Shown here in pieces: positions 3,766-41,717 of a stretch of DNA of 64,000 nucleotides (position 1 is its first letter; the number at the start of each line of letters is the position of its first letter). The translations under genes were made by a program, and so were the position numbers. The notes under the pieces are model-generated. The model ran no database searches. It was not told where the DNA came from and saw nothing but the letters and a program-made list of their open reading frames with translations. The DNA comes from Eledone cirrhosa (lineage: Eukaryota), in NCBI GenBank assembly GCA_964016885.1, contig CAXHJY010001001.1, positions 1 to 64,000 of the forward strand, in the 5' to 3' direction.

Positions 3766-3810
3766 AACGATGTACTAGTTTCAAGCTTGTTAGCTATCAT
3801 CAGCACCGTT
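3766..3810 (-). ncRNA. Minimal type-I hammerhead ribozyme
   Basis: Minus strand: aacggtg-CTGATGA-tagctaacaagctt-GAAA-ctag-TA-catcgtt. 7-bp stem I, agct/agct stem II, palindromic stem III, GUA cleavage triplet. Confidence 0.88.
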
Positions 3811-4241
3811 TACCCATCTGCCAGATAGTTGAACGTTCGAAAGTATATACTTTCCTTATGAAAATTAACGGCTGAGCAGCCTAATTTGCATATTGAGTGA
3901 GTTAAATCGGTTAGGCATACCGAAAACGATAAATTGAAACAAAATGAAAACGAAATTTCATTTCTCACTCTTAGTATGGCACTTACTTAAATGTAAGTAT
4001 GCATGTATACGTACATACATATATGTATACAGACGTACAGTAGCATGCACATATACATATATATATATATATATATACACATATATATACATATGCATAC
4101 AGGTACACATACATATATGCACGTATCAGTTTAGCGGCGCTAACGTCGCTTTGTTCGTTTGTAAACAAACTGAACAGCCTGAATTTATGCCATACGGTGT
4201 TAAGGCAACCACGTCACCTTTTTGTTCAACACTGACACAGG

Positions 4242-4286
4242 AACGATGTACTAGTTTCAAGCTTGTTAGCTATCATCAGCACCGTT
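4242..4286 (-). ncRNA. Minimal type-I hammerhead ribozyme (second tandem copy)
   Basis: Identical to 3766-3810, offset by 476 bp. Confidence 0.88.
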
Positions 4287-4767
4287 TACCCATCTGCCAG
4301 ATAGTTGAACGTTCGAAAGTATATACTTTCCTTATGAAAATTAACGGCTGAGCAGCCTAATTTGCATATTGAGTGAGTTAAATCGGTTAGGCATACCGAA
4401 AACGATAAATTGAAACAAAATGAAAACGAAATTTCATTTCTCACTCTTAGTATGGCACTTACTTAAATGTAAGTATGCATGTATACGTACATGTGTACCT
4501 GTATGCATATGTATATATATGTGTATATATATATATATATATATGTATATGTGCATGCTACTGTACGTCTGTATACATATATGTATGTACGTATACATGC
4601 ATACTTACATTTATATATATATATATATTTATATATATATATATATTTATATATATATATATATATATTTATATATATATATATATATATATATATATAT
4701 ATATATATATATATATATATATATATATATATATATATGAGAGAGAGAGAGAGAATGTAATATGAAC

Positions 4768-4962
4768 CTTAAACATGCTCTTGGTCAATTCTATAGCCTC
4801 CTGGCTGCTGGGGTCGTAAACATTGGTGTTGCTTAAGTCCCCTGACATCAAGGTCCCTGTGTGATCTGCCACTTCTCGTGCAACTTTCAGGGCTTTTTTG
4901 TTCAATATTTCCACCTCGTCCTCACGTCCAACCACCGCCATCTTGTGTCTGTTGCCGTAATA
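4768..4962 (-). CDS. BHMT: Internal exon of betaine-homocysteine S-methyltransferase-like gene
   Basis: ttgtcc[69 protein letters not shown]. 195 bp, phase 0/0, in frame with the exon at 7473-7663 (AFT|YY junction typical of homocysteine methyltransferases). Confidence 0.88.
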
Positions 4963-5051
4963 CTGGACAATAAAATAATAAAACAAACATTACTACTTAC
5001 ATGATGAGGGTAACAGATATAAAACACACACGCCCACTAATCTCCGCCATT

Positions 5052-37409: not shown

Positions 37410-38017
37410 TATATTAGTAAAAGGAAAAGAAAATGGTGACACATTTTTCCCAGTGAAAAATAGTTTAATTAGGAATAAGTAAAAATTACTAATAAGTATT
37501 GGTTACTATTCAGTTTTAGTTTTAGTTTTAAGTTTTTACCGGTTGCGCATTTCTAATGCTTTTCAAAAGTAATTTTGAGATAGAGCGCCCGTGATGTTTG
37601 CTCTAATCTGATTAGAGTAAACATCACGGGCGCCCTATCTCAAAATTATTTTTATTAGAGTAAACATCACGGGCGCCCTATCTCAAAATTATTTTTATTA
37701 GAGTAAACATCACGGGCGCCCTATCTCAAAATTATTTTTATTAGAGCAAACATCACGGGCGCTCTATCTCAAAATTATTTTTATTAGAGCAAACATCACG
37801 GGCGCTCTATCTCAAAATTATTTTTATTAGAGCAAACATCACGGGCGCTCTATCTCAAAATTATTTTTGAAAAGCATTAGAAATGCGCAGCCGGTAAAAA
37901 CTTAAAACTAAAACTGAATAGTAACCAATACTTATTACTAATTTTTACTTATTCCTAATTAAACTATTTTTCACTGGGAAAAATTTGTCAGCATTTTCTT
38001 TTCCTTTTACTAATATA
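37410..38017. repeat. Fold-back element with six 43-bp tandem units at the pivot (paralog about 41821-42423)
   Basis: About 200-bp inverted arms. Unit attagag(t/c)aaacatcacgggcgc(c/t)ctatctcaaaattattttt x6. Confidence 0.9.
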
Positions 38018-38197
38018 TATATATATATGTATATATATATATTAGGTATAGGATTTTTTTTATGATGTCTACCTGTTATTATTCATTCTTTATATATATA
38101 TATATATATATATATATATATATATATATATTGAGTTTATGTTGGTTGTATACCACACCTCAGTATGCAGACTGGAGCACTCGACATACTAATTCAA

Positions 38198-38252
38198 ACT
38201 GCCTGAAGAGGTCACAGCCAAAAATGGCTGTCACTGAAATATATATAGCAGT
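38198..38252 (+). ncRNA. Minimal type-I hammerhead ribozyme
   Basis: actgc-CTGAAGA-ggtcacagccaaaaatggctgtcact-GAAA-tatata-TA-gcagt. Confidence 0.88.
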
Positions 38253-41200
38253 AATAAACGAAGCTAAATTTTAATCATTTAACTTTTATTTAACTTTATT
38301 TTATATATATATATATATATTTATTAAAATAACAGATTAAAGTTTAAGCAAAGAATCGCTGCTTTCACCCTTAACGGGATCTTCTGAATATGTATGTATG
38401 TATGTATATATATGTATGTGTATATATATCTAGTTAGGCAGCGGGACAGGCAGATGGTGTCAAATACCAAGGCATAACCTGGGGAAGAATATACCATACA
38501 GCATAGGTTAGTCGTTAGTGATATCTCAGTAAGCAACAGATGGAATGTGATACACAGGAAGTTGTGGTGAAGAAAGGTCTGGTGGTGGTGGTGGTGGTGA
38601 TGGTGGGGTAGTGTAGTACTGGTGGTGGTAGTGGTGTAGTGTAGCAGTAGTGGTGTAGTGTAGTACTGGTGGTGATGGTGGGGTAGTGTAGTACTGGTGG
38701 TGGTAGTGGTGTAGTGTAGTAGTAGTTGTGTAGTGTAGTACTGTGGTGATGGTGGGGTAGTGTAGTACTGGTGGTGGTAGTGGTGTAGTGTAGTATTAGT
38801 GGTGTAGTGTAGTACTGGTGGTGATGGTGGGGTAGTGTAGTACTGGTGGTGGTAGTGGTGTAGTGTAGCAGTAGTGGTGTAGTGTAGTACTGGTGGTGAT
38901 GGTGGGGTAGTGTAGTACTGGTGGTGATGGTGGTGTAGTGTAGTAGTAGTGGTGTAGTGTAGTACTGGTGGTGATGGTGGGGTAGTGTAGTACTGGTGGT
39001 GATGGTGGTGTAGTGTAGTAGTAGTGGTGTAGTGTAGTACTGGTGGTGATGGTGGGGTAGTGTTGTACTGGTGGTGGTAGGGGTGTAGTGGTAGTAGTAG
39101 TGGTGTAGTGTAGTACTGGTGGTGATGGTGGGGTAGTGTAGTACTGGTGGTGATGGTGGGTAGTGTAGTACTGGTGGTGGTGATGGTGGTGTGTAGTGTA
39201 GTAGTAGTAGTAGTGGTGTAGTGTAGTACTGGTGGTGATGATGGTGGTGTAGTGTAGTAGTAGTAGTAGTGGTGTAGTGTAGTACTGGTGATGGTGGTGG
39301 TGTAGTGTAGTAGTAGTAGTAGTAGTGGTGTAGTGTAGTGCTGGTGGTGGTGGTGGTGTAGTGTAGTATTAGTAGTAATGGTGTAGTGTAGTACTGGTGG
39401 TGATGGTGGTGTAGTGTAGTAGTAGTAGTAATGGTGTAGTACTGGTGATGATGGTGGTTTGTGTAGTAGTAGTAGTAGTAGTAGTGGTGTAGTGTAGTAC
39501 TGGTGGTGATGGTGGTGTAGTGTAGTAGTAGTAGGTAGTAGTAGTGGTGTAGTGTAGTACTGGTGGTGATGGTGGTGTAGTGTAGTAGTAGTAGTAATGG
39601 TGTAGTGTAGTACTGGTGGTGATGGTGGTGTAGTGTAGTAGTAGTAGTAGTAGTAGTAGTAGTAGTGGTGTAGTGTAGTACTGGTGGTGATGGTGGTGTA
39701 GTGTAGTAGTAGTAGTAATGGTGTAGTGTAGTACTGGTGGTGATGGTGGTGTAGTAGTAGTAGTAGTAGTAGTGGTGTAGTGTAGTACTGGTGGTGATGG
39801 TGGTGTAGTGTAGTAGTAGTAGTAATGGTGTAGTGTAGTACTGGTGGTGATGGTGGTGTAGTAGTAGTAGTAGTAGTAGTGGTGTAGTGTAGTACTGGTG
39901 ATGGTGGTGGTGTAGTGTAGTACTGGTGGTGGTGGTGGTGTAGTGTAGTACTGGTGGTGGTGGGTGTAGGTATGTAGGGTACTCTAAGAACTGGGGGGGT
40001 GTTGGTATGTAAGGTACTCTAAGAACTGGGGGTAGTGGTGTTGGTATGTAGGGTACTCTAAGAACTGGGGGGGGGGGGGGGGGTATGTAGGGTACTCTAA
40101 GAACTGGGGGGTGTTGGTATGTAGGGTACTCTAAGAACTGGGGGGGTGTTCGTATGTAGGGTACTCTAAGAACTGGGGGTGGTCGTGTTGGTATGTAGGT
40201 ACTCTAAGAAATGGGGGGGTATGTAGGGTACTCTAAGAACTGGGGGGGTATGTAGGTACTCTAAGAAATGGGGGGTATGTAGGGTACTCTAAGAACTGGG
40301 GGGTATGTAGGGTACTCTAAGAACGGGGGGGGGTGTTGGTATGTAGGGTACTCTAAGAACTGGGGGGGTGGTGGTGTTGGTATGTAGGGTACCCTTTCAG
40401 GTTATTCACCCTACTTTTTAGCATCTGTGCACATGAGCTCAATATTCTTGCAGTAATACAGAGTACCCGACCTCCCATGGGTAGAAGCTGAAGCATATAG
40501 ACAATATCTCCCCCCCCCCACCGCAAGGTGGTCGTGGAGGTGACACGACAAAAAAGCACCCAGCCACACTGTAAAGTGGATGTGTAGGCGCCACGAAAAA
40601 GCACCCAGCACTCACTGTAAATGAGGTTGGTGTTAGGAAGGGCATCCAGCTGTAGAAATCAAGTCAAATCAGTTCCTGTATGAGCAAGGCATGGTCAACC
40701 AACCAGACACTGCCCACAGCAGGACAACCCGTCTAACCCATGCTAGCATGGAAGAACGGACGTAAAACGGTGATGATGATAAAGAATATTGCGCTCATGT
40801 GCGCAGATGCTAAAAAGAAGGGTGAATAACCTGAAAGGGTACCCTACATATCCCCCCCCCAGTTCTTAGAGTACCCTACATACCAACACCCCCCCCAGTT
40901 CTTAGAGTACCATACATACCAACACCACCACCCCCAGTTCTTAGAGTAAATGATGTAGTCACTATTTTAAAACTCATAGTGAATGGTCTTCTAAATGTTT
41001 TTAATTAAACATACGGTGTATTGCTAAATATACTATACATACATTCATATATATATATATATATATATATATATATATATATATATACTTCCTCCCAACT
41101 TGTAGAAACTTATGATGAAACGATTGTTTGGAAAGAGAGATATACTTTAACTTTAATTATATCTCATAAAATAATACAACTGGTTTTTCCACATTATACA

Positions 41201-41586
41201 TATTGTTAGCACCCCAAACACTTAAATTGGGTTTATATTTAAATATAACCTAATGTTTGTTGAGTGAGATGGTTACCAGTCAGAGTTTAGCTTTAAACTA
41301 TCTCTGTTATTGTATTAAATTATATATATATATATATATATATATATATATATATATATATATTATATATATATATATATATATATATATATATACAGAT
41401 AAATCTACCAATCAATGGTAGGGTCTAAACCGTATGAAGAACTCAATGTAATCCGTATGTAGATGTCGTCAAGCGAAGTTTAAAATACAAAATTTTCAAC
41501 GAAATAATTCATTGGATACAGAGTCAAAAATAGAAATATGAAAACAATGAAATTAAACACAAAACGGTTAATTCATAGTAAAACTC

Positions 41587-41717
41587 ATTATTTTACGATC
41601 GTTTCTGGGGTGTAGTTCCCCGTATGTCCATTCTATTATTGATCTATGTAAAATATTACAAAATATCATAGTAAGAAAAAATACATGTCTTCACTACCCG
41701 CCGTCTTCAGAAATAAT
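41587..41717 (-). ncRNA. Type-I hammerhead with about 100-nt stem II domain
   Basis: Minus: attattt-CTGAAGA-cggcgggtagt...actacacccca-GAAA-cgatcg-TA-aaataat. Confidence 0.65.

Follow-up and report, generated by a model that had tools for sequence, protein, structure and literature searches.

The first 64,000 nt of contig CAXHJY010001001.1 of Eledone cirrhosa (forward strand; the window) carry so many hammerhead ribozyme motifs that the question arises of what these motifs belong to and how they came to accumulate. Very probably they sit in the terminal repeats of six Hydra-clade families of Penelope-like elements (PLEs) and in one tandem retrozyme, and piled up because these elements insert into (TA)n, a step in which RNA that has not been cut is likely reverse-transcribed.

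Detection and structure of the motifs

The window was searched with a descriptor comprising CUGANGA, GAAA and UH, a stem I of at least 5 bp, a stem III of at least 2 bp and a stem II of up to 150 nt. Ten intact type I hammerheads were returned, all ten with the core in a three-way junction and an open stem I; they are the ten sites of the initial annotation, and none other. Dinucleotide shuffles of 3401-42000 (300 per block size: whole, 500 and 150 nt), the control proposed in that annotation, gave means of 0.003-0.093 matches per block size, at most 1 against the 10 real ones, and seven or more in 0/300. Stem III, described earlier as always a short (near-)palindrome, was self-complementary in 10/10 intact motifs. 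The six degenerate sites listed there (10823, 19746, 20946, 21566, ~25930 and 37216) were found to be true relatives, and dead motifs make up 6 of the 16 in the window. The motifs were confirmed from their sequence as type I hammerhead folds, with putative self-cleavage after H17.

Seven sequence families (A to G) were distinguished. The claim of at least seven families holds at this level, with D, E and F sharing a stem II scaffold and forming one related group. The claim of a dense cluster stands for the ten motifs, though part of the density comes from counting paired arms more than once: only seven insertions are represented, because pairs are mirror arms, tandem units or local duplication. 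Among the seven families, a G or U-U of Hydra style at position 10.1 was found in family A only.

Single-sequence folding energy was not unusual against shuffles for eight of nine folded motifs (z +0.6 to -2.0) and lay beyond shuffles for the one at 38198 alone (z -3.3). Predicted folds of several families contained weak A-U/G-U stems. Structural conservation despite differing stems, as initially proposed, was seen in 27 sequences of the D/E/F group, in which the core was invariant and the stems covaried: 93.9% of cells were paired, 12 of 20 pairs had two-sided changes, and the covariation score was 0.41 vs 0.06-0.14 with the structure slid. Covariation was weak in family G (two-sided change in 3/36 pairs), for which the predicted fold pairs the two core halves together in what would be an inactive shape.

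Of 141 Rfam matches at E ≤1, none was to a hammerhead, so that all ten intact motifs were missed, likely because of long stem II and AT-rich stems. Its matches in the window were of microsatellite sequence to miRNA models only. The description of the population as mostly unannotated is true for the two sources compared, Rfam and a 2026 paper on octopus repeats, whose main text contains 'ribozyme' and 'Hydra' 0 times.

Elements of the seven families

A family C Hydra-clade element at 14622..18995, 98-99% identical to locus L021, is a head-to-head fold-back of two 5'-truncated copies with a tail on the right arm only. Its intact hammerheads lie at 14665-14735 (-; stem III tgcgca) and 18803-18873 (+). 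The C-terminal 380 aa of the polyprotein are encoded at 16664..17809 (+) and comprise the end of the RT region, a CxCx5C linker and GIY-YIG; an inverted copy of this coding piece occupies 15731-16663. In the full element an 821-aa frame lies between direct repeats with a hammerhead in each, and the RT and GIY-YIG frame was found between pseudo-LTRs in partial tandem at L014, L015, L021 and L022. The protein was 98-100% identical in 108/108 scored genomic copies.

Family G is represented by three stubs. The fold-back at 21232..21779 has a 116-nt stem II, a plus arm with U4 changed (21566) and a minus arm without a core. The stub at 41397..41718 (-) starts 7 nt before CUGA and holds the intact hammerhead 41586-41718 (-; 98-nt stem II). 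Its local duplicate at 37025..37345 (-) has an extra A in GAAA (37216). Full elements with an 830-aa frame were found in partial tandem at L121 and L132. Genome-wide, 863 head-to-head pairs of family G had cores no more than 30 nt apart, the 50 listed all being at 3-19 nt. By their sequences, families C and G are intact, very young coding elements.

A family B fold-back, probably a single one, spans 14115..22270 and is collinear with L124 at 75-82% in low-complexity sequence. Intact hammerheads form its outer pair (14209-14268, -; 22180-22238, +), and the inner copies are damaged: the one at 19746 (-) carries a G where cleavage would occur, and only half remains of the one at 20023 (+). Its arms also contain three later, nested insertions. 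Family D comprises a decayed element at 22353..26098 (+; 76-82% to L167 and L170) with a broken RT/GIY-YIG frame (22534-24420), a 3' UTR, a tail and a hammerhead near 25930 that has lost core and stem II, and a fold-back stub at 27606..27972 with the intact hammerhead 27653-27719 (-) and a half copy on the plus strand. The two family E stubs lie at 20866..21143 (+; hammerhead 20946 with C3 changed) and 32342..32596 (+; intact hammerhead 32482-32547, +; inverted tail piece at the 5' end). The family F stub at 38121..38305 (+) sits in a (TA)n tract and contains the intact hammerhead 38198-38252 (+); at L160 a full but frameshifted family F frame lies between two hammerheads.

The initial annotation had called the population PLE-driven, and six of the seven families were tied to Hydra-type RT/GIY-YIG frames, with family A set apart as a retrozyme. 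RW, DKT, CxCx5C, CxxC and CxH are complete in C and G (RWT, RWR), RWK, DKT and CxCx5C are present in F, and the CxCx5C linker was found in the remnants of B, D and E, which retain frame remnants only, oriented toward their own hammerheads. The endonuclease is C-terminal and of GIY-YIG type; CCHH was absent from the frames in an alignment judged by eye. Inverted 5'-truncated copies and a one-ended tail agree with EN+ Penelope-like elements. Membership of the six families in the Hydra clade is supported by these motifs. Labels Naiad, Neptune and Nematis were rejected since domain order and linker motif disagree. Pfam recognised none of the Hydra frames: it returned 0 families for six window pieces, and no family passed for the full-length protein.

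Family A (stem III ctag) consists of non-coding tandem units of 420-500 bp with one type I hammerhead each. The insertion at 3453..4612 (-) lies between (TA)n tracts and has ~2.2 tandem units of 476 bp and a short inverted arm; its hammerhead at 3766-3810 (-) has a U-U mismatch, a 4-bp stem II and a tetraloop, and that of the second unit (4242-4286, -) is identical. An older insertion at 10560..11075 (-) has a 425-bp unit and a dead hammerhead (10823; G8 and U16.1 changed). Arrays of 9 and 7 units were found elsewhere in the genome, at L138 and L139. By its non-coding tandem units with type I hammerheads, family A is assigned to the non-LTR retrozymes. The proposed check of linking each family to an autonomous PLE thus led to an RT/GIY-YIG frame for six of seven, intact in C and G, and to no autonomous partner for family A. 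In metazoan non-LTR retrozymes the tandem units are likewise non-coding, each with a single type I hammerhead (PMC7229834; bioRxiv 10.64898/2026.07.22.740005), and the U-U at the base of stem II resembles the published axolotl HHR_Amex2. The unit length is at or above the 150-450 bp of reported metazoan retrozymes. Unlike those described, the arrays have two divergent arms, the same mirror-arm layout as the fold-backs of coding PLE families. Of seven sequencing runs, all in the form of assembled contigs, two were of RNA; in these, 5 short contigs matched family C and 0 matched family A, too few to bear on expression or RNA ends.

Insertion sites, genome-wide population and known relatives

Targeting of (TA)n, as initially proposed, was seen in ends that join (TA)n at fixed distances and in a filled/empty site pair inside the window: the (TA)n tract holding the family F stub is empty in the duplicate block 42490-42560. 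The motifs very probably accumulate in the window because the elements insert into (TA)n. Each family has two fixed 3' ends, each joined to (TA)n; mirror arms have the tail on one side, and insertions are nested. In families C and G the copies also break off at a fixed 5' point that lies upstream of the ribozyme. For family C (window example at 18742, +, 69 nt before CUGA) 5,245 of 8,705 anchored copies stop there with no upstream continuation, and in family G, where the break lies 7 nt before the core, 1,775 of 4,922 copies do. Summed depth in one sequencing run rose ~20-fold from 18692 on, which fits an excess of stubs and is not a copy number.

Genome-wide matches were counted with five exact patterns, reversed patterns serving as controls (in brackets): 28,554 for A (5), 8,631 for B (0), 22,319 for C (0), 80,205 for the D/E/F group (149) and 12,890 for G (13). 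The large ribozyme population that had been suspected thus amounts to ~152,600 exact matches vs 167 in controls, or ~51 exact cores per Mb, and the window is therefore a place where a population spread over the whole genome is 5-fold enriched: an ordinary hot spot, no special locus. A looser pattern (198,330 vs 17,921 in control) was not used for the total since it counts some sites twice. The axolotl genome is roughly ten times larger than this one. It is reported to hold 126,247 hammerhead motifs (PMC7229834; bioRxiv 10.64898/2026.07.22.740005).

The kind of element is already published: earlier accounts cover Hydra elements with a hammerhead in Octopus, the palindromic form of stem III, insertion into TA repeats and mirror arms (PMC8557442, PMC4209133). 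Among those of PMC8557442 (Craig et al., 2021) is Hydra-1_Obim of Octopus bimaculoides, a family that carries a hammerhead. Hydra elements in that paper likewise have one RT and C-terminal GIY-YIG frame with RW, DKT, CxCx5C, CxxC and CxH and without CCHH; their hammerhead, with a stem III that is nearly palindromic, lies close to the 3' end, they target (TA)n, and they leave inverted 5'-truncated copies with a one-sided tail. In contrast to that account, at least six families co-exist here with 7,000-22,000 or more copies each. Units are 3.7 kb (C), 4.1 kb (F) and 6.5-6.7 kb (G) with long 3' UTRs vs mostly <3 kb, tails are ~70-100 nt vs 30-40, the stem II of family G is 98-116 nt vs ~10-25 nt in its Hydra table, and C, D, E, F and G have a C-Y mismatch at the fourth stem II position, unlike the Hydra elements shown there.

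Type I motifs with a palindromic stem III implying dimers, in many families per genome, are also described in PMC4209133 (Cervera and de la Pena, 2014), as mostly solitary copies, with opposite-strand pairs 100-700 bp apart and 2,000-9,000 per genome; octopods are not mentioned in the portion of that paper available. Poseidon of Anolis (PMC11167929; Frangieh et al., 2024) is reported to share two RT start sites that define the tail, an AT-rich target and an uncut RNA template; it belongs to another clade, and its RT start sites lie inside the ORF, whereas those proposed here precede the ORF and fall in the 5' UTR. In the open-access papers searched, we found no octopod hammerhead copy number, no stem II of 98-116 nt and no stubs with one fixed break upstream of a ribozyme.

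A proposed copying mechanism and its alternatives

The following course is proposed. A promoter within the terminal repeat would start RNA at the fixed 5' break. The element's endonuclease would nick (TA)n, and reverse transcription would start at two internal sites, one per arm, which lie ~35-75 nt and 100-165 nt beyond the point of cleavage, by analogy with the lizard element in vitro. Where the first copy of the two sites is used, the leader only would be copied, giving a 200-400 bp stub or a fold-back with a whole ribozyme; such leader-only copying may explain why ribozymes far outnumber coding copies. (TA)n would be left on both sides of each insertion and would therefore invite the next. 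With a palindromic stem III, cleavage would need two paired ribozymes or the element's protein, so that lone stubs would be mostly silent, and tandem units and full two-repeat elements would cut out unit-length, possibly circular RNA. Family A would be moved in trans by a Hydra enzyme, and stubs might be re-copied in trans.

The fixed 5' break is likely to represent a transcript start. Less probably, though with an appreciable chance, it lies where RT stops strongly or where the RNA is processed, or results from self-priming on an antisense template, the last being how head-to-head palindromes are read in PMC3846280. The breaks scatter by a few bases, as such an origin would allow, and the extra G at them is often templated: G precedes the break in 1,676 of 5,245 family C copies, often explainable by template switching; among broken copies, 6 of 16 in family C and 5 of 10 in family G have G there, several of them templated, which makes a cap-derived G a hint only. 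What speaks for a capped start is that both C and G break at the same step, between TC and A, although the core is 69 nt away in C and 7 nt away in G, and that the break lies upstream of a stem already opened by RT. The TC|A step is initiator-like.

Building on the capped start, we tentatively suggest that this is the densest animal hammerhead population yet counted because Hydra enzymes would mostly copy capped uncut leader, from transcript start through the ribozyme to the internal RT start. Stubs with promoter, ribozyme and RT start signal may form a self-renewing SINE-like class, and one family would retain an active core with a stem II of 100 nt, a stem that could gate cleavage.

Whether the ribozymes cut is a separate matter. 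The folds may have been kept as protein-binding, promoter or translation signals that are cut rarely or never, most copies being inert passengers; the weak monomer folds, the predicted core-sequestering fold of family G, the uncut ribozyme in every stub and the 6/16 dead motifs in the window would all suit this. The lizard hammerhead is moreover reported to be dispensable for insertion in vitro, with no RNA reads beginning at the cut site (PMC11167929). This is nevertheless unlikely, as seven families that otherwise differ in sequence have all retained the catalytic core, the UH site and a palindromic stem III, and related motifs are reported to cut as dimers or with protein (PMC4209133, PMC7229834, PMC11167929).

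It is very improbable that each of the seven families is a retrozyme, a non-coding ribozyme replicon independent of the others: most copies lack coding sequence and family A is tandem and non-coding, but six families lie within terminal repeats of coding elements, and for C, F and G, where direct repeats flank a frame, the idea is refuted. Chance matches in AT-rich DNA, or fold-backs from assembly error, have next to no probability, even in a window that starts a small contig, is 65% A+T and is microsatellite-rich, given the shuffle and reversed-pattern controls, arms that differ in sequence and tail, the same layout on large chromosomes and the presence of the element in contigs of other sequencing runs.

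The role of the hammerhead in Penelope-like elements is an open question according to PMC8557442. In this genome there are intact and very young Hydra elements, insertion products by the thousand whose 5' and 3' ends can be measured, and a retrozyme that leaves the same footprint, and the predictions on transcript start, RT start and dimer-dependent cleavage are therefore directly testable. The element kind being already known, it is the young copies that would ease study of the copying mechanism, itself inferred from sequence. A ribozyme population of six figures escapes standard Rfam scans, and stubs of this type may be hidden among the short octopus repeats now classed as SINE, MITE or unknown.

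Hammerhead motifs and independent insertions

The window covers the opening 64 kb of contig C1028, part of a 3.0-Gb assembly, and lies in a region dense in microsatellites. The contig opens with 3.4 kb of (TA)n, and a satellite of about 53-bp units (47700-64000) fills the window's last quarter. A descriptor search (type I pattern) recovered precisely the ten intact hammerhead sites listed in the initial annotation, each with a self-complementary stem III. Dinucleotide shuffles of 3401-42000, whole or in blocks of 500 and 150 nt, were run at 300 per set and gave no more than one match to an intact core per set. 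The six sites annotated as degenerate were found to be damaged relatives. An Rfam search of the window returned no hammerhead. The motifs are real and had been read correctly. Families were named by stem III (A, ctag; B, ccactgg; C, tgcgca; D, tatgta; E, tatata; G, cgatcg); family F has the tatata of E with a G-C stem I.

The ten intact motifs were accounted for by seven insertions, and all 16, damaged copies included, by about 11. Sites 3766 and 4242 (family A) were two units of a single 476-bp tandem, and 14665 and 18803 (family C) were two arms of a single 4.4-kb fold-back, an insertion with inverted arms. Sites 14209 and 22180 probably form the outermost ends of a single family B fold-back, the arms of which were collinear with a genomic B copy when nested C, E and G insertions were excluded (75-82%, in a low-complexity alignment). 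The family G motifs 37216 and 41587 were doubled via a local duplication of about 2 kb (36472-38563 versus 40349-42778; 94-99% in unique parts). The duplication also includes a 43-bp tandem element whose ends are inverted (37409-38018 and 41821-42424).

Genome-wide, exact-pattern matches numbered 28,554 for family A (reversed-pattern control, 5), 8,631 for B (0), 22,319 for C (0), 80,205 for the D/E/F group (149) and 12,890 for G (13). Tighter patterns within the D/E/F group gave 7,037 for D and 9,552 for F. The five-pattern total of 152,599 (a few sites are double-counted; additional families exist) corresponds to 51 per Mb. About 2 motifs were expected in the 38.6 kb against the 10 found, a 5-fold hot spot that the pairing of arms and the nesting in (TA)n explain. 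Six hammerheads were found within one 9.5-kb genomic locus (L015).

Coding elements and ribozyme folds

All 108 scored genomic copies matched the window frame 16664-17809 (family C) at 98-100%, many of them with an 821-aa open frame. In genomic loci L014, L015, L021 and L022 the family C frame lay between direct repeats carrying the C hammerhead. An 830-aa frame was flanked by the family G hammerhead (L121, L132), and a complete but frameshifted frame by that of family F (L160). Hammerheads of families B (L122, L124), D (L167, L169, L170) and E (L127-L131) lay downstream of frame remnants, and the decayed window element 22353-26098 was a family D copy. Among the genomic loci retrieved, no frame was found in, for example, L123, L126, L134, L136, L165, L166, L168 and L171. 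The element proteins contained RW, DKT, CxCx5C, CxxC, CxH and, C-terminally, GIY-YIG, marks listed in PMC8557442 for the Hydra clade of Penelope-like elements (PLEs), to which they were assigned by motifs. Another decayed Hydra-type frame (45124-46497, forward strand) matched family C at 50%, and downstream of it an intact hammerhead was looked for and not found. Two LINE reverse transcriptase remnants (Pfam RVT_1) were seen at 29981-31214 and 43316-44900, both on the forward strand.

In an alignment of 27 D/E/F sequences, the hammerhead fold was 93.9% paired versus 32-56% in slid controls, with two-sided changes at 12 of 20 pairs; because the sequences are related, the shuffle control does not amount to a probability. 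Position four of stem II retained a C-C mismatch, and families C and G had their mismatch at the same position. Stem II of family G was a straight hairpin of 98-116 nt with internal loops. In the family G consensus fold the two core halves were paired with each other, a predicted structure that would be inactive; covariation within the family was weak (3/36 pairs). Other hammerhead families were seen outside the window (L084:400-529, L119, L032, L055, L048, L101). One out-of-window family (caattg) had a 95-nt stem II, and long arms therefore occur in more than one family.

Insertion ends and proposed copying

The match ended 69 nt before CUGA in 5,245 of 8,705 anchored family C copies (16/30 on inspection) and 7 nt before it in 1,775 of 4,922 of family G (10/30 on inspection); part of this 5' difference may be due to sequence variants. 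Both breaks were located at a TC|A step. Head-to-head family G pairs within 30 nt numbered 863. At G fold-back junctions (L215, L216, L228, L229), the opening 10-14 bases of the stub (the short ribozyme-bearing insertion) recurred as two or three short repeats, a pattern that looks as if reverse transcriptase (RT) had jumped repeatedly at the RNA 5' end.

The distance from cleavage site to first (TA)4, taken from bait-selected loci from the start of C1, had two peaks per family: 40-49 nt (25/76) and 130-139 (23/76) for C, 30-49 (15/28) and 100-119 (11/28) for B, 50-59 (9/18) and 140-159 (8/18) for D, 40-59 (28/51) and 130-159 (20/51) for E, and 50-59 (14/29) and 140-169 (12/29) for F. For G it was 60-79 nt in 24/50, with none within 200 nt in 23/50. 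The background at 30-69 nt was 883/10,450. Mirror pairs usually had the short end on one arm and the long end on the other. The (TA)n tract holding the family F stub 38121-38305 was empty in the duplicate block. By eye, the tails of families C, D, E and F shared ACTC...GAGTGCT immediately beyond the short 3' end (for example 18920-18950, 21065-21090 and 27885-27915), a motif that is possibly a hairpin read by RT.

As the best reading, we infer target-primed reverse transcription of an uncut RNA template with two internal start sites, for which a lizard element provides in vitro precedent (PMC11167929). The fixed 5' break would be the transcript start. RT starting at the first copy of the start sites would copy the leader only, ribozyme included, which would explain the excess of stubs. 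The palindromic form of stem III suggests that the ribozyme cleaves as a dimer (PMC4209133, PMC7229834), and solitary stubs are for this reason probably silent. Antisense self-priming is an alternative already published for the palindromes (PMC3846280).

Family A, other retrozymes and published features

Family A, in which no coding frame was found, formed arrays of 420-500 bp units, often in two divergent arms. Stem II of its hammerhead, with U-U, four pairs and a tetraloop, is of the form tabulated for Hydra magnipapillata elements (PMC8557442). Two open exons of betaine-homocysteine methyltransferase were identified by sequence match on the reverse strand. That at 7473-7661 was 92% identical to the Octopus sinensis protein and 89% to those of Argonauta and O. 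vulgaris, other matches being 80% or less, which identifies the host as an octopod. The other is at 4750-4962; the gene's first exon and its later ones were not found within the window. The family A tandem (3453-4612) lies just downstream of exon 4750-4962 on the same strand, so that a pre-mRNA would contain two hammerheads capable of pairing. In another retrozyme family (L013:466-3744, L139:3803-3985) the tandem units were 310 bp long and stem III was cgcg; in L013 this family abuts a family C element.

The literature searched yielded no report of such a copy number, of a stem II of 100 nt or of stubs with a fixed start, and ribozymes are absent from the main text of a 2026 octopus repeat annotation. 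Published work already covers hammerheads in PLE terminal repeats, how abundant they are and how diverse their families, along with the palindromic stem III, pairs on opposite strands, targeting of TA and, from Octopus bimaculoides, a Hydra family. A few variant features merit bench testing.
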